NCBI GenBank assembly: GCA_020341815.1
Contig: CP070837.1
Location: 1,044,575 to 1,108,574 of the forward strand
DNA length: 64,000 nucleotides
Reading direction: 5' to 3'
From: Candidatus Omnitrophota bacterium
GTDB lineage: Bacteria > Omnitrophota > Gorgyraeia > JAFGHF01
Shown: piece after piece, positions 51,826 to 63,865 of the stretch
Numbering within the stretch: position 1 is the stretch's first letter
How the letters are laid out: every line of letters starts with the position of its first letter
Notes under the pieces: generated by a model
What the model saw: only the letters and a program-made list of their open reading frames with translations
Databases searched by the model: none
What the model was told of the DNA's origin: nothing
Made by a program: the position numbers and the translations under genes

Positions 51826-52011
51826 ATGAAAGGAATTCTCAAATTAAACAAACACAATAAAGATAAAGAAATAGACTTTGAATTAAATTATCTTAAGTCA
51901 TTATCCTTTCAGCAGAGGCTGCAAATGTGTTTGCAAAAGTCTAAAGAAATGAAGGAGCTTTTAAAGAAAAGTGGGCACAGAAAGACTTTTGAAATTATTA
52001 AAAGGACATAA
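51826..52011 (+). CDS. small ORF (61 aa), putative partner of the downstream nucleotidyltransferase
   Basis: AT-rich. Overlaps the NTase start by 41 nt in another frame. Weak similarity to the 57-aa ORF at 7436-7609 (shared ...D/N-YLK-x-h-x-F segment). Confidence 0.3.
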   Translation: MKGILKLNKHNKDKEIDFELNYLKSLSFQQRLQMCLQKSKEMKELLKKSGHRKTFEIIKRT

Positions 52012-52417
52012 GGTAGATTTCGTAATTATCGGCGCTACCGCCTTTCCTCTCTACGGCTATGCGCGTGCTACATTGGATATAGATATTTTTATTCGCCCCG
52101 AGGAAAATAATGCCAAAAAGACCTGGCGGGCTTTAAGGAAATTCGGGTATGATTTAAGCGATGTAACTATAGAAGATTTAATGAGTAAAAAATTATTAAT
52201 TCGTCAATACAACGTAGAAACAGACATTCACCCTTTTGTAAAAGGCATCACTTTTAAAAGGGTATGGAAGAACAAACTGCGGGCAAAATTTGGCCATACC
52301 TTTGTATATTTCGCTGCGCTTGAGGATTTGATCAAGATGAAGAAGGCTGCGGCGCGGCCTCAGGATTTAGAAGATCTTAAATATTTAAACAGATTAGCCA
52401 AAAAACATAAAAGCTAA
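51971..52417 (+). CDS. minimal nucleotidyltransferase-fold protein, paralogue of ORF 7620-8150
   Basis: VDFVIIGATAFPLYGYARATLDIDIFI NTase signature. AT-rich. Ends 1 nt before tRNA-Glu. Confidence 0.6.
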   Translation: MGTERLLKLLKGHKVDFVIIGATAFPLYGYARATLDIDIFIRPEENNAKKTWRALRKFGYDLSDVTIEDLMSKKLLIRQYNVETDIHPFVKGITFKRVWKNKLRAKFGHTFVYFAALEDLIKMKKAAARPQDLEDLKYLNRLAKKHKS

Positions 52418-52418
52418 C

Positions 52419-52496
52419 GACCCCATCGTCTAGCCCGGCCTAGGACAAGAGCTTTTCAAGCTCTCGACACCGGTTCGAATCCGGTTGGGGTCGCCA
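52419..52496 (+). tRNA. tRNA-Glu (anticodon TTC)
   Basis: Acceptor GACCCCA/TGGGGTC, D-arm GTCT-AGCCCGGCCTA-GGAC, anticodon stem AGAGC/GCTCT with loop TTTTCAA, T-arm ACCGG-TTCGAAT-CCGGT, discriminator G, CCA. Confidence 0.85.
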
Positions 52497-52545
52497 TCAA
52501 TTCGGACACTCTTGTAACTTAAACAGTTATAAGAGGTTAAATAAA
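52482..52545. repeat. left direct repeat (putative attL) spanning the tRNA-Glu 3' end plus 49 bp
   Basis: 64 bp. Matches 63801-63865 with ~5 mismatches and 1 indel: cggttg(c)gggtcgccatc[a/g]attc[g/a]gacactcttgtaactta..cagttataagaggttaaataaa. Confidence 0.7.
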
Positions 52546-52710
52546 GTAAGGGGAGTTGAAGTACTTCAAAAAAGGAGTATTTTGGCTTCCTTTTTTATTT
52601 TATCTCAAAAGCATAGTTCAATTTTTGAATTCAGCTTTAAGCAAAGCATAATTCAAAATTTGAACTCTCATATATTAAATAAATAGATACTTAAATAGAA
52701 GACTTAAACT

Positions 52711-53190
52711 ATGAGAACCATTTACCCATTTGGCTGGATAGACAGAGACCTTAAAGAATTAGGATTTTTAAAGGAAATGTCTCCTACAGCGGCAAAGCTT
52801 TATATTCTTTATATCCTGGCCGGTGGCGCAAATGGCAGAAGCTGTTACAGCGCTAAGGCCTTAAACGAAGCAACCGGCCTGGCAAACGCCACAATATGCA
52901 AAGCAAGACAGGAGCTTCAAGATATGGGTCTTATTGCAGTAGAGAAGGAAATGATACCGGGTCGCAAGAACAAGAAGCCAAAGATATGGGTAGAGCTCCA
53001 GGATCTTCCGGTTGACAGGATGGAGGTTAAACAACGCAGAAACACCGCCCATAAAGAACTTACCACTAAGAGAATCAGGAAAAGGAGATCGGAATTCATT
53101 GAACAGCCGAGACTTCTTTGTGAAAGGCCATATATGGCTCCAGATTGGCTGAAACAAGGTGTAAAACGAGCAAGGAGGCCTTATGTTTAG
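52711..53190 (+). CDS. winged-helix DNA-binding protein (regulator or replication-initiator-like)
   Basis: Predicted HTH around SAKALNEATGLANATICKARQELQDMGLI. Basic C-terminal tail. Preceded by paired inverted-repeat sites. Confidence 0.5.
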   Translation: MRTIYPFGWIDRDLKELGFLKEMSPTAAKLYILYILAGGANGRSCYSAKALNEATGLANATICKARQELQDMGLIAVEKEMIPGRKNKKPKIWVELQDLPVDRMEVKQRRNTAHKELTTKRIRKRRSEFIEQPRLLCERPYMAPDWLKQGVKRARRPYV

Positions 53191-53407
53191 CCTGCGCCGC
53201 TGGCTCAAATATACCCTAAATCCCCCAGAATATATTTGGATAAAGGCCATTTTGCTCAAAGAAACCCGCAAAGCCATCTTAATTGAGTTCGATGGCAAGC
53301 AAATCTGGCTCCCGAAGGTCTGGATTTTACGTATCAAACGAATTCAATGCAACCCTACCATAAGCATCAAAATATCCCAGTATCACTGGGCCAAGAAGCT
53401 CGGGTAA
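53183..53407 (+). CDS. hypothetical small protein (74 aa)
   Basis: Overlaps the previous gene by 8 nt. No recognised motif. Confidence 0.35.
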   Translation: MFSLRRWLKYTLNPPEYIWIKAILLKETRKAILIEFDGKQIWLPKVWILRIKRIQCNPTISIKISQYHWAKKLG

Positions 53408-53541
53408 TTTCTGTATTCAGCCTCGTTTTTTTCATGTATTCCCCTTTACAACCCTCTCAAAAGCATTTATAATAGTAAGCCAACTAGACGCTAAATGCTA
53501 GCAAAAGGGCTTATTTTACCGGTCCAAGAAGTATTTAATAC

Positions 53542-53571
53542 TTGAAAACAGAGCTTTTTCAGGAGTATAAT
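53542..53571 (+). promoter_or_regulatory. sigma70-type promoter for the methyltransferase operon, with a 15-bp palindrome over the -35 box
   Basis: TTGAAA (53542-47), 17-bp spacer, TATAAT (53566-71). Palindrome aagtatttaatactt at 53529-53543. Confidence 0.5.
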
Positions 53572-53610
53572 ATATAGCTGTCGAATGTCTATATAAAGCT
53601 GGAGAAATGT

Positions 53611-54669
53611 ATGCCTTGCAATTTTAGCGTTATTGATTTATTTTCTGGATGTGGCGGACTGTCGTACGGCTTTGTTAGGTCGGGGTATAATGTCTTGCTG
53701 GGTATAGATAATGATCCGGTAGCCCTCAAAACTTTCAAGCTCAACCATTCCGGATCGGATACTATAATAGCTGATATTGCAGGCATTTCCGGACAGGATA
53801 TCCTGAAAGCTGTGGGCAGAAGACAAATAGACGTTGTTATAGGCGGACCGCCATGTCAGGGATTTTCGCTTTCTGGCCCCAGAAAATTTAGTGATCCCAG
53901 AAACAAATTATACCTTTCTTTTATAAGGCTGGTTAAAGAACTGAAGCCTAGGGCATTTCTGATTGAGAATGTTCCCGGCATTATGAGTCTCTACAAAGGA
54001 CAGATAAAAGACGAAATTATTGGCAGATTTTCGAAAATGGGTTATAAAGTGAGTTGCAGTAAGCTGAATTCGGCAGACTACGGCGTTCCCCAACTGAGAA
54101 ACAGGGTTTTTTTTGTGGGAATATATAAGGCGAAAGAGTACTTTAAGTTCCCCCCTCCAGTGTTAAATAAAGAATGTTATATTGTTGCCGAAGAAGCCAT
54201 CGGCGATCTGCCAGGTTTGGAGGATCGTATCGGCACAGATCCAGCCCCTTATCCCGGAAACGGCGAACTCACGAGATATCAGAAATATATGAGGCAAGGT
54301 TCTCAGTATATACATAATCATATCGGAACGCGCCATGCCGAAATGACAAAGCGCGTTATATCTCTCGTTCCGGAAGGATGTAATTATAAAAGTCTGCCGC
54401 CGGAATATGCCAATACCAGAAATTTTCATGTTGCATGGACAAGGTTCCACAGCAAAAAGCCGGCACCGACCGTTGACACTGGCCATAGACACCACTTCCA
54501 TTATTTATATGACAGGGTTCCTACTGTCAGAGAATGCGCAAGGCTGCAATCTTTTCCGGACATTTTTATTTTCATCGGAAATAAATCACAACAATATTCC
54601 CAGGCAGGAAATGCAGTTCCTCCATTCACGGCACAAGCTATTGCGGAAGAAATGAGGCATTATTTATGA
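53611..54669 (+). CDS. DNA (cytosine-5)-methyltransferase, copy 1
   Basis: Motif I DLFSGCGGLSYGF, motif IV GGPPCQGFS, motif VI ENVPG, motif VIII QLRNRVFFVG, motif X GNAVPPF. Confidence 0.9.
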   Translation: MPCNFSVIDLFSGCGGLSYGFVRSGYNVLLGIDNDPVALKTFKLNHSGSDTIIADIAGISGQDILKAVGRRQIDVVIGGPPCQGFSLSGPRKFSDPRNKLYLSFIRLVKELKPRAFLIENVPGIMSLYKGQIKDEIIGRFSKMGYKVSCSKLNSADYGVPQLRNRVFFVGIYKAKEYFKFPPPVLNKECYIVAEEAIGDLPGLEDRIGTDPAPYPGNGELTRYQKYMRQGSQYIHNHIGTRHAEMTKRVISLVPEGCNYKSLPPEYANTRNFHVAWTRFHSKKPAPTVDTGHRHHFHYLYDRVPTVRECARLQSFPDIFIFIGNKSQQYSQAGNAVPPFTAQAIAEEMRHYL

Positions 54670-56081
54670 GATACCAGATACCAGAAGAATATTATTGTAG
54701 GTTGCACCACATACGTCCGAGGTTTAAAAATAATATAGAAAATGTTCTTATTTATATGGCTACCGAGATATCTAAAATTCGAAGAAAGAGCAAAAGAGAA
54801 TTCGATAAAGAAGTTAATAAAGCAATTAAAAAATTCCCAGGGAATGCAACGAAAAAGATTAAGACAATCAACAATTGGCGCACAGAAATCTCCTCTCTGT
54901 TTGGTTTTATCCGCACCAGCAGATCAAAAGATAAGTCGTGGCCAGCACTGAGGGCGACAGAGCTGGCGGATAAACAGGATTTGGTGCATTCGTTCAAGCT
55001 TTTTCTGTACCATTTTCAGTATCCCGGAGGACATCTCAAGCCTCACGAAAATGCTGAAGTTATCAGGCAAGGTATCAAATTCAGACCGGCACCTTTTATT
55101 TTGAAATTACTGCATAGCGCTGAAAAAAATGAAAAGACCAGGAAAGGTATCACCAAGCCCGAGCTGACCCACTGTGTTTTCAATGACCTGAGAGTCACGC
55201 GTGACGGGGAAGGTCCGGAATCCGTATGGGAGCGCATTAAAGAAAACAGGAAGAAAAAGGTTCAATATGACTGCAGGGGGGATGTTATACGTTATGCCGG
55301 AGATATTCTCGACTATATGGTAACGGCTAACTTACTTACTCCCCACGGGCAGAAATATTTTATAAATACCCTGGAGAAAAACGCGGTGCAGAAATTTATG
55401 GAGTCAAAAGATTGGTTTAGCAAGTATGACCGTTATATAGATAAAAGAAATGTTACCTTAGCGCAGATAAATAGTCTTCAGGAAGCATGGTTTGAATATG
55501 TAAATATGCCCAGGGAAGAGATATTCGAAACGGATGCTTTGGCTTTTATCGCCAGAGACGAGACAGAATATGCGAAGTTGCGAAAACAGATCGTAAGCAG
55601 TTTTATGGAAAAGCTCGAAGAGCCTAGTGAAATTGGCACGAAGGAAATAGGGGATGTGGGCGAAAATCTTGTGCACGGGCACGAATGTATGAGGATTAAA
55701 TTGCGCGAGCGTACAGACTTAATACATCTTATTCGGTGCATACCGGATCATCTCGCTGCCGGTTACGATATCAGATCTGTCGAGGCAGATGCTACATACA
55801 GATATATAGAGGTTAAAACTACCATAAGCAACAGCGAAATTGATTTTACCAGAATTCATCTGACGCCTGTGGAATGGACTGCGGCAGACACTCTTAAAAG
55901 CAGATACTTTGTCTACAGACTGCTCTTAAGCAAGAGGTCAAGAAAATTATTTCTGCTTCGCGATCCGGTGGGCCAGTACAAACAAGAAAAACTATCAATG
56001 ACGCCGCGCAACGGGGCAGATATTGTTTTCAGCCCTGCAAGATGCGGTGAATATACGGAGCTTCTGGAGTGGAGAGATTAA
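54666..56081 (+). CDS. protein with C-terminal DUF3883 (restriction-endonuclease-like fold) domain and uncharacterised N-terminal region
   Basis: C-terminal GENLVHGHE ... GYDIRSVEADATYRYIEVKTT ... IHLTPVEWTAA ... YFVYRLL matches the DUF3883 pattern. ATGA-coupled to the upstream MTase and overlaps the downstream MTase. Confidence 0.6.
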   Translation: MRYQIPEEYYCRLHHIRPRFKNNIENVLIYMATEISKIRRKSKREFDKEVNKAIKKFPGNATKKIKTINNWRTEISSLFGFIRTSRSKDKSWPALRATELADKQDLVHSFKLFLYHFQYPGGHLKPHENAEVIRQGIKFRPAPFILKLLHSAEKNEKTRKGITKPELTHCVFNDLRVTRDGEGPESVWERIKENRKKKVQYDCRGDVIRYAGDILDYMVTANLLTPHGQKYFINTLEKNAVQKFMESKDWFSKYDRYIDKRNVTLAQINSLQEAWFEYVNMPREEIFETDALAFIARDETEYAKLRKQIVSSFMEKLEEPSEIGTKEIGDVGENLVHGHECMRIKLRERTDLIHLIRCIPDHLAAGYDIRSVEADATYRYIEVKTTISNSEIDFTRIHLTPVEWTAADTLKSRYFVYRLLLSKRSRKLFLLRDPVGQYKQEKLSMTPRNGADIVFSPARCGEYTELLEWRD

Positions 56082-57484
56082 GAATAGCTTCGCTTTTCTG
56101 TGGTTGCGGCGGCACGGACGCGGGAATGCTCGGGGGGTTTACTTTCCTCGGCAGTAAATATGAAAAGCATCCTGTACAAATCGTTTACGCGAACGACATA
56201 GATGCCTCCGCAGCCAGAATATACGATGCAAATTTTAAACACAAATGCCTGGTGAAAGATATCCGGAAGATAAAAGCAGCAGAAATACCGGATCATGACA
56301 TATTGGCCGGCGGATTTCCCTGCCAGTCGTTTTCCATAGTTGCGCAGAATCCGCCTCGTCTGGGATATAGAGATGAAAACGGCCGGTTATTCTTTGAAAT
56401 GTGTAGGATTTTGCGTAATAAAAAACCGTTAGCCTTTGTTGCCGAAAACGTCAAAGGTATTTTATCGGCAAACAATAAACATGCTTTTCCTCTTATAATA
56501 AAAGAGTTTGAAAAATGTGGATACATAGTTTCCTGGTGTCTCCTGAACGCGGCTAATTATGGCATTCCGCAGCGAAGGGAACGTGTTTTTATTGTCGGAA
56601 TAAGAAAAAATATAGGCAGGAAGTTTTATCCTCCGGATTCTACCCACAGGCCGGAAAGCGATCTCTTGGCCGAAAGAAAATGGGTATCATTAAAAAGAGT
56701 TGTCTTTCCGCATGCCAAGGTGCCGAAGAAATATTTTTTTTCCGACAGGGCGCATAAGGGTCTTCATAATTCCAATCCCGCAATGAATAAAGGCCGGGCG
56801 CAGGATCCCGAGAAAGTTTGTAATACTGTGGGAGCGCACCTTGCTAAAGTCAGCCTTAACAGCACGGATCCCGTTTTAAAGATAAATGGTCGTTTCAGGC
56901 GCTTCGCGCCCAGAGAAGTGGCCAGAATTCAGTCTTTCCCTGATACTTTCAGGCTGCCGGGACCGGACACGGCTAAATACAAGGCTCTGGGGAACGCAAT
57001 TCCGCCGGTGTTGATGTGGCATATGACAGAAAGACTGCTCGAGATATTGGTTAAAGGTCCGGCCGAAGATGCAAGGACCGGCCGGGAAAAAAGAAGCTAT
57101 AATATGGCGCGAATTTGTTCAAAAAACACATTAATAGAACGTATTCTTGATGAAGCATTAAAGTCCTTAGGCTTGGAATATAAAAGAAATGTCAAAGGGC
57201 TTCCCGGAAAACCAGATATAGTTTTTGAGAAAAATCGTCTGGCGGTTTTCTGTGACAGCACGTTTTGGCACGGCAGACATTATCCCGAATGCGTAGAACG
57301 GATTAACACAAATAAAAGTTTCTGGAAAAACAAGATATTGAGAAACATGGAACGAGATAAAAAGACAACCAAAGAATTAAGATATCTAGGCTGGAAAGTG
57401 CTTCGTTTTTGGGATACCGATATAGAGAACAGAATGCAAGCCGTGATAGGAAAAATAGAAAAAATATTGGGTGCCCAGAAATGA
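56069..57484 (+). CDS. DNA (cytosine-5)-methyltransferase, copy 2, fused to a C-terminal Vsr-like very-short-patch-repair endonuclease domain
   Basis: MTase motifs FCGCGGTDAGM, GGFPCQSFS, ENVKG, QRRERVFIVG, GNAIPPV. C-terminal ~130 aa PDIVFEKNRLAVFCDSTFWHGRHYPE ... FW.NK ... RD ... LGWKVLRFWDTD matches the Vsr signature. Confidence 0.8.
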   Translation: MERLRIASLFCGCGGTDAGMLGGFTFLGSKYEKHPVQIVYANDIDASAARIYDANFKHKCLVKDIRKIKAAEIPDHDILAGGFPCQSFSIVAQNPPRLGYRDENGRLFFEMCRILRNKKPLAFVAENVKGILSANNKHAFPLIIKEFEKCGYIVSWCLLNAANYGIPQRRERVFIVGIRKNIGRKFYPPDSTHRPESDLLAERKWVSLKRVVFPHAKVPKKYFFSDRAHKGLHNSNPAMNKGRAQDPEKVCNTVGAHLAKVSLNSTDPVLKINGRFRRFAPREVARIQSFPDTFRLPGPDTAKYKALGNAIPPVLMWHMTERLLEILVKGPAEDARTGREKRSYNMARICSKNTLIERILDEALKSLGLEYKRNVKGLPGKPDIVFEKNRLAVFCDSTFWHGRHYPECVERINTNKSFWKNKILRNMERDKKTTKELRYLGWKVLRFWDTDIENRMQAVIGKIEKILGAQK

Positions 57485-57999
57485 TATATGAAAGCCGCAC
57501 ACTAGGAGAGTCGCCATTTGATTTTGATATTAGCTGGCCCTTTCCGGAAGGACAGAGAAAGTTGCTTGAAGCAGCCGTAACTAAAATAAAAATAGAATCA
57601 GCATCCCAAATTGATAAATTTGAAGAATCTTTCAATGAGGAGATTGCGCAGCATGGTTATATGTGGGACAAGAAAGATAAAAGCACATGTTCTCTCTGGC
57701 GGCCCGATTTCAGAATGTCTGTTGATTTCTATAACGCAAAGGAAAAAATTGCAGTTGAAATTGAAAAGACAGAGGTTAAAAGAATTATCCACGACGTATT
57801 AAAGCTAGTGAACGGCTCCTTAACCTTTGTGCCCAAAGTGAGATATGGAGTAATTATTCATCCGCACACATATAAACGCACATCAGGTAAAGAGAGTGTA
57901 TTTGCATCACGGGTTGTAAGCGAAGTTTCCTTCTATTTCAGGCGTTTGATCGGAAACACCTTATTAAATGATGTTCTTTTTATAGTTTATAATTTTTGA
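57481..57999 (+). CDS. hypothetical protein (172 aa), candidate PD-(D/E)xK nuclease
   Basis: Likely start MIYESRTLGE is ATGA-coupled to the MTase-Vsr stop. RPDFRMSVDF ... IAVEIEKTEVK is weakly PD-ExK-like. Confidence 0.4.
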   Translation: MIYESRTLGESPFDFDISWPFPEGQRKLLEAAVTKIKIESASQIDKFEESFNEEIAQHGYMWDKKDKSTCSLWRPDFRMSVDFYNAKEKIAVEIEKTEVKRIIHDVLKLVNGSLTFVPKVRYGVIIHPHTYKRTSGKESVFASRVVSEVSFYFRRLIGNTLLNDVLFIVYNF

Positions 58000-58148
58000 G
58001 CTGGTTTAAGGTTTTTCTTCGTCGGTAGAGTTTTCATGTTTCTTTGACTCGAATTCCCCGATAGAAAAGTGTTATGTTCCCAGAATTGCTGCACTTTATC
58101 TAGACGGCAAGAGGAAAACTTGGTTGTATAGGAATAAAGGCAAATATC

Positions 58149-58436
58149 TTGATTGGACGCGATTTTGGAATAACTTCTCGTTTTTTAATTAGAGGATTGA
58201 ATATAAAGAAGCTCCTGGCTCTGGCAATTCTAATCTGCCTAATATCCCTAACTGTTTTTGGCCAAGAAAAGAATTACCAAATGAAAACAGGCATATTAAA
58301 GACTTATGGAGAACCATTTTGGAAAGGCGAAGGCAAGCAGCGAGAAGTTTGGTATTACCCACGCCAAAGAATGTTTATTTATTTTGAAGGAGATAGAGCT
58401 ATTGAGATTGATGTAATTGCAGGGGAGAAGACATAA
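58149..58436 (+). CDS. small exported or lipoprotein-like hypothetical protein
   Basis: Hydrophobic N-terminus LLALAILICLISLTVFG. 95 aa. Confidence 0.4.
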   Translation: MIGRDFGITSRFLIRGLNIKKLLALAILICLISLTVFGQEKNYQMKTGILKTYGEPFWKGEGKQREVWYYPRQRMFIYFEGDRAIEIDVIAGEKT

Positions 58437-58439
58437 CGA

Positions 58440-59099
58440 ATGGAAATAATAAAACAAACATATTGTGCGGTTTTAAATAGCTTAAACCAAAATGCTAAAG
58501 ATAACTTTGATTATTTTTGTTCTGAAATTCAAAGAGTTGCAAACGAATATGGGATAGCGAATAAAGTCACTAAACTTGAACTTATCTGCAAAGGGAACCT
58601 TTATCGAAATATAGCAATAAGCTCCGGAAGAGTAAATATAAAAAATAATAATGATAAAACCTACAACTTCTGGGCTTCCTGTTCATTGTTTGTTACTAGG
58701 AAAGAAAGAATTACTGCAATAGTGCAACATGAATTGATGCATATTAAAGATATGGAGGATAAAGAATTTAAATTTGATAAAGAACTGTGGGACGGGTTGC
58801 TTGAAGACAAAATAATAGCCACATCGATTAGGCATATTTGGGACATCTATATAGATTCACGGATTGCGAGAACGAGTAAAATTGGTATTTCTAAACAAGA
58901 TAGGCTCGATGGGATCCTGCGTCTCGCTTTAAATAAGAATTTTCAATTAAGACATTGCATTTGGGAAATTGAAGATGATTTTGATTATCTTTGGAATATT
59001 GAGAAAATAGATTTTCCGACTATCATTGATAAAGCTAAAGAATTAAAAGAGAAAGTAGCGAATAAAGGTATGGCCCACCCGTCCGAAGAAACTTTATGA
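58440..59099 (+). CDS. HExxH-motif putative metallopeptidase
   Basis: HELMH motif (IVQHELMHIKD). 219 aa. AT-rich. Confidence 0.45.
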   Translation: MEIIKQTYCAVLNSLNQNAKDNFDYFCSEIQRVANEYGIANKVTKLELICKGNLYRNIAISSGRVNIKNNNDKTYNFWASCSLFVTRKERITAIVQHELMHIKDMEDKEFKFDKELWDGLLEDKIIATSIRHIWDIYIDSRIARTSKIGISKQDRLDGILRLALNKNFQLRHCIWEIEDDFDYLWNIEKIDFPTIIDKAKELKEKVANKGMAHPSEETL

Positions 59100-59328
59100 A
59101 ACTCAACGCTAAAGTAAAGATCTGGATGATCTTAGCCCCTTTGTGATAATGGCGACAATAGCCACAAAGGCTTTTTGCTATCCAGCAGAGGTTGAGGATA
59201 TGAGCGGAGAAAAATGCGTAGGATAATCTTTCGCCATAGTGGCCAAAAAATGCTATCCCTATGCAAAGGGGATAATGGATAAATAGCAGTTATTCTCATT
59301 TTTATAAAGTTTATGGAGTAAAAGGAAG

Positions 59329-59889
59329 ATGATTGACAGAAGTTTTGTTGATTATTGGAGCGAAAGATACGATAAGAATGCTCTGAAGAGAGATAAAAAG
59401 CTAGAGAAGAGAATTAGAGGAAAACTAAAGAAACTTTTTCCCGATGGGAAGGTAAAATACATTTTGAAAGACACGTTATTCGACATCGTTAACTGGAAAG
59501 CTCCGAGAAAGAAAAAATTAGCCAAAGATAATAAAAAAGAATATGTCTTTGAATTAACCAAGGCAAATTTTAAGGGGCATAGAGAACAGCTAAAGATAGA
59601 GGGACTAACATTACTGAAGGGTGTTGAGTATCGGGTTGCGAGTGCAATTCTTCATTTCTGTTTTCCCAAAAAATATACCGTAATGGACTATCGGACTTGG
59701 GAGTGTTTACAGAAAGAAAAAGAACTTCCTAAGGATTGCAACATTAAAGATGATTTTGAGCATTGGCAGAAATATTTAAAAATCTGTAGAAAAATAGCCA
59801 AAAGATGTAATGTCCCATTAAGAAAACTTGATAAGGCACTCTGGCAATACCATAAGGAATTGGAATGTAAAAAGAAGCTCAGGAAATGA
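59329..59889 (+). CDS. hypothetical protein (186 aa, Lys-rich)
   Basis: ORF with a plausible SD (aaaaggaag 8 nt before the ATG). No recognised domain. Confidence 0.4.
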   Translation: MIDRSFVDYWSERYDKNALKRDKKLEKRIRGKLKKLFPDGKVKYILKDTLFDIVNWKAPRKKKLAKDNKKEYVFELTKANFKGHREQLKIEGLTLLKGVEYRVASAILHFCFPKKYTVMDYRTWECLQKEKELPKDCNIKDDFEHWQKYLKICRKIAKRCNVPLRKLDKALWQYHKELECKKKLRK

Positions 59890-59963
59890 TAGCAGGGAGA
59901 AAAAATAAATCCGCCCCCCTGCTTTTTACTATTTCTATAACTTATTGAAGATAGTCCATACTA

Positions 59964-61130
59964 TCATTCTGGCCAAGCACTTAATTTCTGGTTGCCATGG
60001 AAAGAAAATAACTGAACATGACCACAATAGCCGCAGGTAAAGATTTTCATTGAATGAGTTCCAACGTATTTGAAGCCAAACTGCATCATGTCATTTGGGT
60101 CGCGATCAGCAATTAGTTTGTATTTACCAATCCCGCAAACTCTACATAATCGTTCAATATCGGGATCAAGCCGATCAGCACCCTCATCAATAATAGATAA
60201 GGTATTATCCACTTCTGCGAGAAGTTCGGAGGCATCCCTAAGGCAGTTTTTTTCATCTTCTACTATACATTTTTTAAGAAGTGAATTAGCCAATCGCATT
60301 AAACGACTGCTTGGGAACTTCTTTTCTAGATTAAAGTCCGGTCTATCAAAATACCAGAGAGGAAGAATAGGTGTGTCTGAAACCATTGCCCATAAGACCT
60401 TCCCCAAACAAAATACATCAAATGATGGTTTTACATCTTCTATCCGCATCCCTATTGCCCAACCGGGCATCCAATCCCGACTTCCTACATTCTCCCAGGT
60501 GCCAGAGATTCTGGTATGTCTTTGGTCTGTAAAGAATATCAGCCCAAAATCTCCAAGAATTAAATTATCGCTGGAATCAAGAAAAATATTTTGAGGCTTA
60601 ATATCTCTATGTACATTATTTTTTTCATGTAATTTGGCAATACCTTCCACAAGTGGCCTAAATGCTCTAAGGGCTTTAGCAAAATCACCGGTAAATTTAT
60701 TTAAATGTTTAGCCATCGTTTCTTTTGGGTAAAATTGAGACACAAACCATTTTGAATCTGGATCAGCATCTATAATTTTTAAAAGATTGGGATGTGAAAT
60801 GTTAGACATCGCTTTAATTTCACGCTCAATTCTTTTTTCGGCTAATCCGGCATTTCTTGCGTCTTGGGGACTATGCAATACTTTTAAAGCGCCGTGGTTT
60901 GAAGGATCTTCCATTTTAACAAGATGGACTATAGCATCCTTGAATAATTCAAATTGATTCTTCTTGATATCTTCTATTGCAACCACAGGCCCCATATATT
61001 TAACTGCTTTTTCAATGTTTGTCCGAATTTTGGTTATATTAAATTTATCGTTATCAATAACGCGATAAACCTTTCCTTGCCCGCCCTCTCCTTTATGCTC
61101 AATAATACGCCATCGGTTTGAATATTCCAT
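59964..61130 (-). CDS. eukaryotic-like Ser/Thr protein kinase with C-terminal zinc-ribbon
   Basis: Gly loop GEGGQGKVYRV, catalytic loop HRDIKPQNIFLD, DFG, C-terminal CRVCG ... CGYCGH. Confidence 0.85.
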   Translation of the reverse strand: MEYSNRWRIIEHKGEGGQGKVYRVIDNDKFNITKIRTNIEKAVKYMGPVVAIEDIKKNQFELFKDAIVHLVKMEDPSNHGALKVLHSPQDARNAGLAEKRIEREIKAMSNISHPNLLKIIDADPDSKWFVSQFYPKETMAKHLNKFTGDFAKALRAFRPLVEGIAKLHEKNNVHRDIKPQNIFLDSSDNLILGDFGLIFFTDQRHTRISGTWENVGSRDWMPGWAIGMRIEDVKPSFDVFCLGKVLWAMVSDTPILPLWYFDRPDFNLEKKFPSSRLMRLANSLLKKCIVEDEKNCLRDASELLAEVDNTLSIIDEGADRLDPDIERLCRVCGIGKYKLIADRDPNDMMQFGFKYVGTHSMKIFTCGYCGHVQLFSFHGNQKLSAWPE

Positions 61131-61282
61131 TTAAGACCTCCTGCTTTAGGTTTCTAGGCTTCTTCTGCCTTTCTTGAGGTTTGAGAAGCAGTTATTTTAC
61201 AACTTCCGTTACTAATTATAATCCTTAAAACAATGGATCTCAAGCAAAATCTGCCCAGAGAGAAAATTTTTTAAAATTTCTC

Positions 61283-61311
61283 TTGACAGATGCCCAAGCA
61301 TATGCTATTAT
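61283..61311 (+). promoter_or_regulatory. sigma70 promoter (TTGACA-17-TATTAT) with a palindromic operator in the spacer, driving a leaderless HTH gene
   Basis: -35 TTGACA at 61283-88, spacer gatgcccaagcatatgc, -10 TATTAT at 61306-11. The ATG at 61319 is ~7 nt downstream of the -10. The ORF-track start at 61283 is the TTG of the -35 box. Confidence 0.55.
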
Positions 61312-61318
61312 TAAAACG

Positions 61319-61498
61319 ATGACAGAAAAGGAGATTCTTGCAAAGATAGAAGATTACATGAGGAAGAATAATCTCCGGCAGTACGAATTGGCAAAAAAGT
61401 TAGGCGTTCCAGAGTCGACACTTAATAGGTGGCTTAAAGAGAAAACAAATATCTCAAATGCCTACCTGGCCATTTTAAAAAGAGAAGGGATTATTTAA
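61319..61498 (+). CDS. small HTH (XRE/cI-like) transcriptional regulator, probably leaderless
   Basis: HTH LRQYELAKKLGVPESTLNRWL. Start revised from the track's TTG to the ATG at 61319. Confidence 0.6.
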   Translation: MTEKEILAKIEDYMRKNNLRQYELAKKLGVPESTLNRWLKEKTNISNAYLAILKREGII

Positions 61499-61631
61499 AA
61501 AATTTTTAAGGAAAATATTAGCATATGCCAAAGCAAGCGTTAATAGAAAAGAGAGCAAAGCAAGGCAAAGAAATTTTTTTGCCCAATAAATTAGCATATG
61601 CCAAAGCAAATAAAGGAAAGGAGAGAGAGCT

Positions 61632-61838
61632 ATGTCAGAGCTGGCAAGGAAGATAGGGGATAATATCCGCCATTATCGCACGGAGAAGAAGCTGACGCAG
61701 GCGCAACTGGCCAAGAAGGCCAAGTTGAGCCGCGGTTATATCTGCAGAATTGAGCATGGCAGGGTTAATATGTATTTAACGACTCTTTTTGAACTTGCCA
61801 AGGTCCTTGGGGTTAGCTGCCGGGATCTGGTTAAATAA
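61632..61838 (+). CDS. XRE-family HTH transcriptional regulator
   Basis: LTQAQLAKKAKLSRGYICRIEHG HTH. Strong SD aggaaaggagag. Two copies of attagcatatgccaaagcaa upstream. Confidence 0.8.
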   Translation: MSELARKIGDNIRHYRTEKKLTQAQLAKKAKLSRGYICRIEHGRVNMYLTTLFELAKVLGVSCRDLVK

Positions 61839-61853
61839 AAAGGAGAGCCTGAT

Positions 61854-61988
61854 ATGGAGAGCAAAGAGAAGCCGGTCGCGGGAGAAAGGATTAATCAGTT
61901 TATTATCGAGTGCTTATTTAATAAGTACTTCGAGGAGCAGAAGGATAAAGAAGTAGTCGTCAAGAAGGAAGAAGTCGCAGCCCAATGA
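61854..61988 (+). CDS. 44-aa acidic small ORF translationally coupled to the serine recombinase (possible recombination directionality factor)
   Basis: Manually translated as MESKEKPVAGERINQFIIECLFNKYFEEQKDKEVVVKKEEVAAQ. SD aaaggagag. TGA overlaps the recombinase ATG (ATGA). Confidence 0.35.
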   Translation: MESKEKPVAGERINQFIIECLFNKYFEEQKDKEVVVKKEEVAAQ

Positions 61989-63622
61989 AACAGGCAATTG
62001 CCTATTTAAGAAAATCAACAGACTTACAAGAAGCCTCTTTGGAGCAGCAGAGGGAGAAAATCCTCCTGTTTGCAGAAGAGCATTCTATTAAAGTGATTGA
62101 GTTCTTTGCCGAGGAGGCCTGCGGCGAGAATGTCGAAGGCCGGCCGCAATTCCGCAGGATGATAGATTGCTGTAAAGGACAGGATAACTTTCAATACGTG
62201 TTTGTATATGATATCTCCCGATGGGGCAGATTTGAGAATCCGAAGGAAGCTGTATATTGGGAAGTAGAAATAGAGAAGGCAGGCAAAAAGCTTGTTTTTG
62301 TTTCGGAAGGTTTTAAGGAAGACAATATAGGCACCTCAATTACAAATTTTGTAAAGAGCGCAGAGGCCTCAGAATATCTAAAGAATATCCGGCGGCAGAC
62401 GACAAGGGGCATGATTTACAACGCAAAGCAGGGCTTTTGGATGGGCGGCAGGCCTCCTTATGGATATGACCGGGCTATTGTTGAAAACGGAAAGATAATC
62501 GGGGTTTTGCCGCAAGGGAAGCAGAAGGGCATAAAAGATCAGAAAATAAAGCTTGTTATAAATAAGCAGCAGGCCAAGGTGATAAGGATAATATATATCA
62601 TGTTTGCGAAGCAAGGCCTGTCGGTGCGCTCTATAGCTACTTACTTAAATCAAAGCCGATATTCTCCTCCAAGGGGCCGGATGTGGACAAAATCAGCCCT
62701 CTGGCGGATGTTACATAATGAGGTTTATATCGGGATGTTAGTGTATAACCGGGAAAATAAACACAAGAGGCACGGCAGACATAAATATAACCCTAAAGAC
62801 AAATGGATAATTGTAGAGAATGCCCACCAGCCGATAATTCCTCTGGAGCTTTGGGAAATGGCCCAGGCAAGGACAAATCAGGCCTTTGCAGGCGGAAGGT
62901 TTGTGTCCAGAGGAAACAGGCCGCGGAGCAATTATCTTTTATCAGGACTTATAAAATGCGGGAAATGCGGCTCTAACTTTCATGGCAGCCGCTATCATAG
63001 AAAACATTCCATAACCAGAGTATATTGCTGCGGCGGTTATAATATGTATGGTAACAATGTCTGCGCCAGATGGGAAGTGAATGCCGGTGAGCTCGAAGAC
63101 TTTGTCTTAAAATATATACAGGGCAAAATAGATAATCCTATATGGCGCAAGGAGTTAAGACAGGAACTCTTGAAGATGGTTAAAATTGCAGAAGGCAAAT
63201 CAGGCGGCAGGCTGCACGAGCTTGACAAAGAAATCAAAGAAGTGTCTCTAAAGATAGAGAACTGGAAAAGAGCCATTGAAAAAGGCGTAGAATTGGATAA
63301 TGCCGTCAGTATTATCAATAAATATGTATTTCAGAGGCAGCAATTATATCAGGAAAAGGGCAGGCTGTCGGCAAAAGTGCATAACGGCAGCGCCGATAAG
63401 GCCGTAGAGAAGATGCTGTCTTATCTGGACGACTTCAAAGACATATTGAGCTATGGCGAGCCGGAAAGGAAAAAGGACTTTATCAGGCTGTTTGTTAAGG
63501 GTGTTATGATGAATCCTGAGACGAGAGAAGCCAAAATAACCCTTTACAGGCGGCCGAAATCTGGTATAATATTAGGACCTGAAAAGTGCGAGTTGACAGA
63601 AGAAATAGTCTATCAGAATTGA
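61985..63622 (+). CDS. large serine recombinase (integrase)
   Basis: N-terminal resolvase catalytic domain AIAYLRKSTDLQ (Ser nucleophile). Recombinase domain. C-terminal zinc-ribbon CGKCG ... CCGG ... C and coiled coil. Confidence 0.85.
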   Translation: MKQAIAYLRKSTDLQEASLEQQREKILLFAEEHSIKVIEFFAEEACGENVEGRPQFRRMIDCCKGQDNFQYVFVYDISRWGRFENPKEAVYWEVEIEKAGKKLVFVSEGFKEDNIGTSITNFVKSAEASEYLKNIRRQTTRGMIYNAKQGFWMGGRPPYGYDRAIVENGKIIGVLPQGKQKGIKDQKIKLVINKQQAKVIRIIYIMFAKQGLSVRSIATYLNQSRYSPPRGRMWTKSALWRMLHNEVYIGMLVYNRENKHKRHGRHKYNPKDKWIIVENAHQPIIPLELWEMAQARTNQAFAGGRFVSRGNRPRSNYLLSGLIKCGKCGSNFHGSRYHRKHSITRVYCCGGYNMYGNNVCARWEVNAGELEDFVLKYIQGKIDNPIWRKELRQELLKMVKIAEGKSGGRLHELDKEIKEVSLKIENWKRAIEKGVELDNAVSIINKYVFQRQQLYQEKGRLSAKVHNGSADKAVEKMLSYLDDFKDILSYGEPERKKDFIRLFVKGVMMNPETREAKITLYRRPKSGIILGPEKCELTEEIVYQN

Positions 63623-63756
63623 AAGAGACCCCTTGGGGTCGCCAGATTATATACTTCTTTAGTTCCCAACCGGAACAAAAGAGGGGTTTGGGGAGAAAAA
63701 AGTGTTTTTTCTCCCCAAGGGCAACTTCTTCTTTGCGTAAGGAAAGAAAAATATTA

Positions 63757-63790
63757 AAAAGAAAACCATCAGGGTTTTCTTTTTAAGGAG
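63757..63790 (+). terminator. rho-independent terminator after the recombinase region
   Basis: gaaaacc-atca-gggttttc hairpin followed by ttttt. Preceded by a 12-bp-stem hairpin ggggagaaaaaa/ttttttctcccc at about 63698-63724. Confidence 0.5.
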
Positions 63791-63800
63791 CGAAGCGACC

Positions 63801-63865
63801 CGGTTGCGGGTCGCCATCGATTCAGACACTCTTGTAACTTACGCAGTTATAAGAGGTTAAATAAA
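63801..63865. repeat. right direct repeat (putative attR) containing a degenerate tRNA-Glu 3'-end remnant
   Basis: Matches 52482-52545. The upstream gcgacccggttgcgggtcgcca looks like a deletion derivative of the tRNA T-arm/acceptor end. Confidence 0.7.

Follow-up and report, generated by a model that had tools for sequence, protein, structure and literature searches.

The locus raises the question of whether two genes for cytosine-5 (C5) DNA methyltransferases, bracketing a gene for a DUF3883 protein and followed by a gene for a small nuclease, represent an uncharacterised defence configuration or a restriction–modification (R-M) system of a known type. The genes are located in the window, i.e., the whole analysed stretch of 64,000 nucleotides. 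The four genes are a mobile BpuJI-type restriction–modification locus that also includes a fused Vsr domain and, as a rare addition, a second restriction-like nuclease. The locus is largely ordinary, and its fourth gene is the sole moderately novel part. Genes 1–3 (M1, R and M2::Vsr) are, with high confidence, a type IIS R-M system of the BpuJI family, to which gene 4 adds an accessory second nuclease, all of them being carried on an island at a tRNA-Glu gene. The features are as follows.

52419..52496, + strand: tRNA-Glu(ttc), integration target (ARAGORN; its 3' end overlaps the left direct repeat)
52488..52545, + strand: left 58-nt direct repeat, att-like (93% identical to the right copy, spacing 11,320 nt)
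53542..53571, + strand: promoter-like site TTGAAA-18-TATAAT, 11 of 12 matches (consensus scan, pattern match only)
53611..54669, + strand: M1, cytosine-5 DNA methyltransferase, 352 aa (PF00145, PADLOC MTase_II, motifs)
54666..56081, + strand: R, BpuJI-family type IIS restriction endonuclease, 471 aa (BpuJI_N and PF13020)
56069..57484, + strand: M2::Vsr fusion, 471 aa, GTG start (PF00145, PF03852, TIGR00632)
57481..57999, + strand: gene 4, BglII/BamHI-fold PD-(D/E)XK nuclease, 172 aa, PF26497 (Halo_RE), JSV30_05905
61985..63622, + strand: large serine recombinase at the right end of the island (PF00239, PF07508, PF13408)
63808..63865, + strand: right 58-nt direct repeat, att-like (repeat search)

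The tight coupling of the four genes described in the initial annotation was found in full: consecutive genes share ATGA at 54666 and 57481, and the overlap at 56069 is 13 nt long. Homologues aligning from residue 1 back the start codons of gene 3 (GTG) and gene 4 (ATG). The promoter-like site precedes the start codon of M1 by about 40 nt; the region contains no more sites of this kind than expected from shuffled sequence. The operon is carried in an island of about 11.3 kb, the large serine recombinase of which is likely its integrase.

Both methyltransferases contain motifs I, IV (PCQ), VI (ENV), VIII (QxRxR), IX and X of C5 enzymes, with a variable TRD between motifs VIII and IX, and score 211 (M1) and 257 (M2) bits against the TIGR00675 cut-off of 100.65. 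M1 matches PF00145 over residues 5–349 (E=5.9e-71) and PADLOC MTase_II (E=4e-114), and its translation shows the motifs FSGCGG, PPCQ, ENV, QxRxR and GNAVPP. The C5 methyltransferase part of M2 comprises residues 5–323 (nt 56081–57037; PF00145, E=1.3e-70). Orthologues of M1, with 48–61% identity, are present upstream of R in related loci, and orthologues of M2 (55–80% identity) are present downstream of R in all of them. The TRDs are alike among M1 proteins and among M2 proteins, and unlike between the two groups. Two different C5 methyltransferases bracket the 471-aa protein, as initially proposed. M2 is not Dcm-like, matching PRK10458 with 92 bits and only in the catalytic half.

The Vsr part of the fusion, a T:G mismatch endonuclease domain, comprises residues 338–450 (nt 57080–57418) and was identified by PF03852 (E=2.6e-21) and TIGR00632 (120.4 bits, cut-off 97.85), which bears out the M.C5::Vsr fusion named in the initial annotation. 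In alignment with E. coli Vsr (1cw0, E=8e-20), KPDIVF corresponds to RPDFVV, including the predicted catalytic Asp of the PD motif, and THGCFWHHHHC of the E. coli protein corresponds to CDSTFWHGRHYPEC. The first Cys position, presumably that of a Zn ligand in E. coli Vsr, is occupied by Thr, with a Cys three residues earlier. Vsr is an optional accessory, separate or fused, in about 22 of 81 related loci; it is mostly a separate gene, and fusion to M2 was found only in loci L001, L064, L087 and the window locus. The E. coli dcm and vsr genes overlap, and a C5 methylase is coupled to Vsr both there and in the window. Unlike the E. coli Dcm–Vsr pair and the EcoRII-type CCWGG systems, the window locus has Vsr fused in frame to M2, and M2 is not Dcm-like.

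R consists of two domains. Residues 3–276 (nt 54672–55493) give a full-length BpuJI_N match and a structural match to the N-terminal recognition domain of BpuJI, with its two winged-helix subdomains. The PD-(D/E)XK nuclease domain occupies about residues 330–440 and includes the DUF3883 domain (NOV_C, PF13020, residues 363–429, E=1.4e-10) reported initially near the C-terminus. Its putative catalytic D...ExK residues, of the archaeal-Holliday-junction-resolvase-like (AHJR-like) type, are contained in Y367-D368 and E382-V383-K384, and all 27 homologues compared keep the YD...EVK motif unchanged. For this domain, the AF2 model is of low confidence (pLDDT 32–45 over residues 320–390) and is without a fold match; the nuclease fold assignment therefore rests on the Pfam match, the motif and the order of secondary-structure elements, not on structure.

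The nearest biochemically characterised relative of R is BpuJI of Bacillus pumilus, a type IIS enzyme recognizing 5'-CCCGT (PMC1874659; PDB 2vla, 5hlt), from which the function of R is predicted. R.BpuJI was purified and crystallised, and comprises an N-terminal recognition domain and an AHJR-like C-terminal domain; bpuJIR lies between bpuJIM1 and bpuJIM2, each of which encodes an m5C methyltransferase for one strand, and both are needed (PMC1874659). R and BpuJI share the recognition domain and the AHJR-like PD-(D/E)XK domain, and the Y367-D368...E382-V383-K384 residues of R correspond to YD348...E367VK369, essential in BpuJI mutagenesis. The window locus likewise has its nuclease gene between two m5C methyltransferase genes, as established from gene order. 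The D-to-E spacing of the active site is 14 residues in R versus 19 in BpuJI. The recognition domains have only about 25% identity, therefore the recognition site of R probably differs from that of BpuJI. Unlike BpuJI, the window locus has Vsr fused to M2 and an appended fourth nuclease gene, and is located in an Omnitrophota genomic island.

In a gene-neighbourhood survey, a check suggested in the initial annotation, 78 of the 82 related loci had the order M1–R–M2, and the remaining 4 ended at contig edges. The same order was found on the Acinetobacter plasmid pANC7914.1. There are 2708 homologues of R at E<=1e-5, and at least 481 loci were confirmed in a metagenome scan. With these domain E-values, and the gene order kept in about 80 independent loci, the feature is far beyond chance. 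The asymmetric-site type II-like system first suggested by the two C5 methyltransferases is retained, as a type IIS system. The configuration is not uncharacterised, because BpuJI has the same layout; in substance it is a known R-M type, although public records name relatives of R only as 'DUF3883 / NO VEIN domain-containing protein'. The abundant family carrying this label between two dcm-like genes is accordingly the BpuJI type IIS restriction family, and thousands of such loci become annotatable as complete R-M systems.

By homology to BpuJI, a monomer of R would bind an asymmetric site through its winged-helix domain, and binding would free the dimeric PD-(D/E)XK C-terminal domain for cleavage near the site. 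M1 is predicted to methylate one strand of this site and M2 the other, so that hemimethylated host DNA would be protected as well. The Vsr domain of M2 would repair the T:G mismatches arising from m5C deamination, and gene 4, translationally coupled to M2::Vsr, would act as an accessory nuclease with the BglII/BamHI fold.

The recognition sequence was searched for in k-mer composition. In the window, none of the asymmetric 5-mers is conspicuous and CCCGT shows no depletion, and a specificity for R derived from window k-mers was rejected on these grounds; the island being foreign, no k-mer adaptation is seen in the host. Across 56 related, non-redundant loci of the nuclease family, CCCGT is not under-represented either, and the most depleted truly asymmetric 5-mer is CCCGC/GCGGG, which occurs 19 times inside the modules where 91 are expected, and 118 times outside them where 193 are expected. 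The depletion stems from a gut/Clostridia clade with R proteins about 55% identical to that of the window; it is visible neither in the window, with 2 CCCGC against an expectation of about 3, nor in its closest relatives. CCCGC is the site of the type IIS enzymes FauI and SmuI (PMC4309577) and is one base off that of BpuJI. The avoidance of CCCGC is a new lead, by which this sequence is likely to be the target in the gut-bacterial clade. An asymmetric reading of CCWGG by R, with M1 and M2 modifying one strand each, was also considered and is unsupported, the module signal being CCCGC and CCWGG in the operon being at expectation (8 observed versus 9.3 expected). No base-contact residues of BpuJI are given in the accessible literature.

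Gene 4 is a PD-(D/E)XK nuclease by fold, in agreement with its first description. It has the BamHI/BglII alpha/beta core, the four closest matches of the structure search (BglII, BstYI, BamHI and OkrAI) are all orthodox type IIP restriction endonucleases, and D82, E93, E95 and K96, the putative acidic catalytic residues and lysine, are invariant in 30 sequences. Gene 4 is under purifying selection in the window. It is probably a restriction endonuclease, the second of the locus and type IIP-like, and most likely an active one. Sequence searches gave no match to solved restriction endonucleases at E<=10 and none in the local copy of Pfam, NCBIfam, PADLOC or PHROG, and a literature search for Halo_RE / PF26497 found nothing relevant. 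Identity to the four structural neighbours is 8–15% in structural alignments, with no detectable sequence similarity, and gene 4 is 20–50 residues shorter. All four enzymes are partnered by N4-cytosine methylases and cleave NGATCN; the Halo_RE family, unlike them, pairs with C5 (Dcm-like) methylases. GATC was considered as a target from the BglII fold and the GATC depletion of the host, but was rejected as evidence: the depletion affects only the core genome and does not extend to the island or the operon. A phage origin was rejected too, no relative being found among viral contigs.

Normally, the partners of Halo_RE are a Dcm-like (CCWGG-type) methylase and Vsr. Cassettes of Dcm-like methyltransferase, Halo_RE and Vsr were found in loci L099/L100 and L092. 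The methyltransferase is Dcm-like over its full length, including the TRD (PDB 3lx6, E=2e-82; PRK10458, 333–375 bits), which is of the RTLSARYYKDGSEILI type. The cassettes of L092 and L093 contain 0 CCWGG versus about 5 expected, which suggests CCWGG as a candidate target of Halo_RE on the basis of k-mer depletion. A conserved protein of about 530 aa, encoded in L006, L092 and L093, was rejected as an obligatory partner, being absent from the window. No Dcm-like methyltransferase was found in the 64-kb window, and the TRDs of M1 and M2 are unrelated to that of the Dcm-like partner. Because the window lacks this methylase and the operon contains 8 CCWGG, the self-protection of gene 4 would be unexplained if it cuts CCWGG. 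Halo_RE appears, as a second lead, to be a BglII-fold restriction endonuclease that acts together with Vsr and m5C methylases of the Dcm-like kind, and that is sometimes carried on BpuJI-type modules without the methylase; if gene 4 is active here, the question is how a restriction nuclease stays harmless without its cognate methylase. The general picture of R-M biology is unchanged by either lead.

One answer, possible but on balance doubtful, is that gene 4 has no methylase of its own and would recognise a subset of the M1 and/or M2 sites, two unrelated nucleases sharing one methylation pattern. No other methyltransferase is encoded in the window, and BpuJI-like modules have acquired Halo_RE on at least two occasions without its Dcm-like methyltransferase: the order R – M2::Vsr – Halo_RE is repeated in L087, and M1–R–M2–Halo_RE–Vsr was found in L101–103, where R is only 46% identical to that of the window. 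Gene 4 is nearer to the copy of L093 (72%) than to that of L101 (62%), and in L093 Halo_RE likewise follows another restriction endonuclease (EcoRII-C), with a single methyltransferase. The purifying selection on gene 4 and locus L006, with CCWGG almost absent (2 observed versus 27 expected), neither methyltransferase Dcm-like and one carrying an M1-like TRD, point the same way. Against this, the sole module k-mer signal, CCCGC, belongs to the gut clade rather than to this one and cannot cover CCWGG, the TRDs of M1 and M2 are unlike the Dcm-like one, and the rest of the 1.55-Mb genome may carry a Dcm-like methyltransferase. With a similarly tentative standing, gene 4 may found a structurally new class of C5-methylation-sensitive restriction endonuclease, with the BglII fold, probably directed at CCWGG and repeatedly grafted without the Dcm-like methylase; two unrelated nucleases would then rely on the single M1/M2 pattern, or gene 4 would have other self-protection.

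Protection would be unnecessary if gene 4 were a modification-dependent (type IV-like) or repair-associated nuclease, accumulating in neighbourhoods of defence and m5C repair, a reading considered unlikely. No methylase is near the distant relatives of Halo_RE on haloarchaeal plasmids or those in a defence island of Bacillus toyonensis (AbiV, AbiC, PIN), the latter being solitary copies with no methyltransferase within 5–6 kb; other copies adjoin Nmad3, RAMA/HNH_2 or a giant helicase, and the family recurs beside the T:G repair enzymes Vsr or HhH-GPD. The solitary copies, however, are the more distant relatives (28–42% identity), and the orthodox type IIP structural neighbours, the classic M-R-V cassette with its Dcm-like methyltransferase and CCWGG depletion, and the C-protein-like wHTH gene found with Halo_RE in L006, divergent from a C5 methyltransferase gene, all argue for a restriction enzyme.

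It is improbable that the operon comprises two adjacent R-M pairs, M1 serving the BpuJI-like nuclease and M2::Vsr being the methylase and repair enzyme of gene 4. The M-to-R order with the ATGA overlap between M2::Vsr and gene 4 is consistent with this, as is the position of M2 immediately before Halo_RE in three lineages; in L099/L100, Halo_RE directly follows a C5 methyltransferase and adjoins Vsr. M2 orthologues, however, follow R in about 78 loci free of Halo_RE, therefore M2 belongs to the BpuJI-like module. Local alignments of the M2 TRD with the Dcm-like TRD score 22–60 versus 194–506 within the M2 group, the M2 C-terminus is not chimeric, and BpuJI needs both methyltransferases (PMC1874659). 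M2 was accordingly rejected as a cognate or chimeric methylase of gene 4, its TRD and C-terminus both being of the M2 type.

The original reading, an uncharacterised defence configuration with a nuclease that is not a canonical restriction enzyme, is very improbable: it draws on an uninformative public label ('DUF3883 domain-containing protein'), whereas R is homologous to R.BpuJI in full-length BpuJI_N match, structural match, catalytic motif and gene order, and already falls under the PADLOC model REase_II (E=3e-29).

The fourth gene, a side detail in the initial annotation, is the only unusual part of the locus.

The core of the four-gene operon belongs to the known BpuJI family of type IIS restriction-modification systems, as a new and uncharacterised member with a Vsr fusion, and the sole moderately novel element is the appended gene 4, a predicted nuclease with a modelled BglII fold. 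The operon itself is real, and its ORFs were found as described in the initial annotation; neighbouring ORFs overlap by ATGA at 54666 and at 57481, and by 13 nt at 56069:

53611-54669, + strand: gene 1, C5 methyltransferase M1, 352 aa
54666-56081, + strand: gene 2, nuclease R, 471 aa
56069-57484, + strand: gene 3, M2::Vsr fusion, 471 aa, GTG start
57481-57999, + strand: gene 4, Halo_RE nuclease, 172 aa
53542-53571: promoter-like site TTGAAA-18-TATAAT, a pattern match only

A GGAG-type ribosome-binding site precedes each of genes 1-3; the chosen starts of genes 3 and 4 are backed by homologue alignments, which begin at residue 1.

The finding turns on gene 2, since its N-terminus, called unassignable in the initial annotation, can be assigned. 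Residues 3-276 match Pfam BpuJI_N across the entire profile (E=1.6e-100), as well as the crystallised recognition domain of R.BpuJI (sequence E=1e-16; profile E=1.4e-22). The NOV_C/DUF3883 match covers residues 363-429 (E=1.4e-10). The C-terminal domain of BpuJI is a PD-(D/E)XK nuclease resembling archaeal Holliday junction resolvases, in which D348, E367 and K369 of the motif YD...EVK are essential (PMC1874659). The same catalytic motif is present in the R of the window as Y367-D368...E382-V383-K384, invariant across an alignment of 27 sequences. The AF2 model of the nuclease domain has low confidence over residues 320-390 (pLDDT 32-45); the fold assignment is therefore based on the HMM hit together with the motif and the order of secondary structure elements, alpha-beta-beta-beta-alpha-beta. 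BpuJI-type C-terminal domains were also found fused to HSP90-like ATPases in eukaryotes (PMC1874659), presumably the NO VEIN-type proteins behind the name DUF3883.

Gene 1 encodes a C5 methyltransferase (PF00145, E=6e-71), and gene 3 encodes a second one (E=1e-70) with a fused Vsr endonuclease (TIGR00632, 120 bits at a cut-off of 97.85; E. coli Vsr 1cw0, E=8e-20). In the BpuJI paper, the source of both mechanism and gene order, bpuJIM1 and bpuJIM2 flank bpuJIR and encode m5C methyltransferases, each modifying a different strand of the asymmetric site (PMC1874659). Target-recognition domains (TRDs) are conserved inside the M1 group and inside the M2 group but not across the two, as would be expected of two strand-specific enzymes. 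The BpuJI_N match, the YD...EVK motif and the published M1-R-M2 order thus leave no support for the earlier reading, in which the configuration was uncharacterised and its nuclease non-canonical.

The R protein has 2708 homologues at E<=1e-5; an identical protein of a Candidatus Omnitrophota MAG is annotated only as 'DUF3883 domain-containing protein'. Flanking genes were scored in 82 related loci by tblastn with the window proteins: in 78 of them R has M1 upstream and M2 downstream, the remaining four being cut by contig ends. A metagenome scan confirmed at least 481 loci of the module, and the trio was also found on the Acinetobacter plasmid pANC7914.1. One R homologue of 819 aa (P0052), combining PF00145, BpuJI_N and NOV_C, appears to be an M1::R fusion. 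About 22 of 81 loci carry a flanking Vsr gene, mostly as a separate gene after M2 and at times before M1; among the loci compared, a fusion to M2 is seen only in L001 (Omnitrophus magneticus), L064, L087 and the window. The accessory itself is common, and M.C5::Vsr is therefore one of its minor lineage variants. In other loci, further defence genes, encoding a third C5 methyltransferase, GmrSD_N, GIY-YIG and HATPase_c_3 proteins, are stacked downstream of M2, and this slot, past M2 (and Vsr), seems to be a place where defence genes accrete. Restriction genes occupy it in three related loci:

L024, 8968-11840
L044, 8477-11777
L048, 7532-11505

The BpuJI site CCCGT is not avoided. In a k-mer survey of 56 non-redundant loci of the R family (L007-L086), CCCGC/GCGGG, the type IIS site of FauI/SmuI (PMC4309577), was the most depleted truly asymmetric 5-mer, with 19 sites observed against 91 expected inside M1-R-M2 modules and 118 against 193 outside them. 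Fewer sites than expected were present in 47 of 54 loci; the ratio was 1.10 in loci lacking the module, and single-base variants showed no depletion. The signal derives from the gut/Clostridia clade and suggests CCCGC as the recognition sequence of that clade; expected sites are too few to tell in the window and its closest relatives.

Gene 4 has no match in local Pfam, NCBIfam, PADLOC or PHROG scans; 34 homologues carry the precomputed annotation PF26497 (Halo_RE), one of them also weakly matching BglII. The AF2 model from 30 homologues is confident (pLDDT 91.3), and residues D82, E93, E95 and K96 are invariant. Only 52 of 1.84 billion cluster representatives belong to this tiny family, and gene 4 is absent from all 82 surveyed R loci; Halo_RE is found again after M2 in the divergent branch L101-103, ordered M1-R-M2-Halo_RE-Vsr, with R only 46% identical. 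The nearest relative, at 3269-3787 of L087, likewise stands in the order R - M2::Vsr - Halo_RE, and the comparison gives dN/dS of ~0.08, 85% amino acid identity and pS of 0.52. The three upstream genes are more diverged from L087 (70-73% identity, synonymous sites saturated), a hint that gene 4, independently of its neighbours, has a more recent history or was exchanged more recently.

Elsewhere, Halo_RE lies in a compact cassette of C5 methyltransferase, Halo_RE and Vsr (L099/L100; variant in L092) or follows the series HTH, methyltransferase, 527-aa protein, HhH-GPD and EcoRII-C (L093). The methyltransferases of these cassettes form one orthologous group, Dcm-like over the full length including the TRD (PDB 3lx6, E=2e-82; PRK10458, 333-375 bits vs 46-105 for M1- and M2-type enzymes). 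CCWGG is missing from the L092 and L093 cassettes (about 5 expected) and occurs twice across L006 (27 expected). Given these cassettes and the depletion, the family appears to be a true type II restriction enzyme that works with Dcm-like methylation, its target probably being CCWGG. No Dcm-like methyltransferase was found beside gene 4 or elsewhere in the 64-kb window, the TRD of M2 is not related to that of the Dcm-like enzymes, and CCWGG occurs in the operon at the expected frequency (8 vs 9.3). The host may be protected by an unlinked methylase or by M1/M2, or gene 4 may have changed its specificity or play a non-classical role, an option kept among the candidates because solitary Halo_RE copies occur in defence islands. 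Distant relatives (about 28% identity) are lone hypothetical proteins on haloarchaeal plasmids; 49 plasmid records, mostly haloarchaeal, carry such genes, and the two records inspected (L096, L097) have no methyltransferase within 5 kb. A ~530-aa protein without a Pfam match, 28-50% identical among three loci, accompanies Halo_RE, C5 methyltransferases and T:G repair genes:

L006, 6551-8119, - strand
L092, 7444-9060
L093, 1861-3444

In L099, a 540-aa gene occupies the corresponding place.

The operon is located inside an integrative island, in which G+C falls and whose left repeat extends into the 3' end of tRNA-Glu:

52419-63865: island, ~11.3 kb, including tRNA-Glu, the 3' end of which is the target
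52488-52545 and 63808-63865: 58-nt direct repeats, 93% identical, bordering the island
52711-53190: replication-initiator-like HTH protein
61283-61838: two small HTH genes
61985-63622: large serine recombinase, at the right end

GATC is 4.3-fold depleted in the core part (window 1-52487; 49 sites against an expectation of about 210; z=-19.9 for the whole window) but not in the island (52488-63865; 29 vs 35.5) or the operon, both at expectation; therefore, the island is a recent import. GATC avoidance by the host has causes unrelated to this locus. The gene at 59964-61130 (- strand) encodes a Ser/Thr protein kinase of 388 aa whose C-terminus is Cys-rich; the PADLOC models mad6 (E=3e-29) and PD-T4-6 (E=4e-27) both match it, and it is possibly a second defence gene of the island. 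Three ORFs between operon and kinase (58149-59889; 95, 219 and 186 aa) have no Pfam, NCBIfam or PADLOC match; the 186-aa protein matches phrog_24538, of function not known (E=5e-12). Between gyrA and tRNA-Glu (51826-52417), there are two overlapping ORFs, one of 61 aa and one of 148 aa that is DUF6036/DUF2204 nucleotidyltransferase-like, and the two may be a toxin-antitoxin-like pair.
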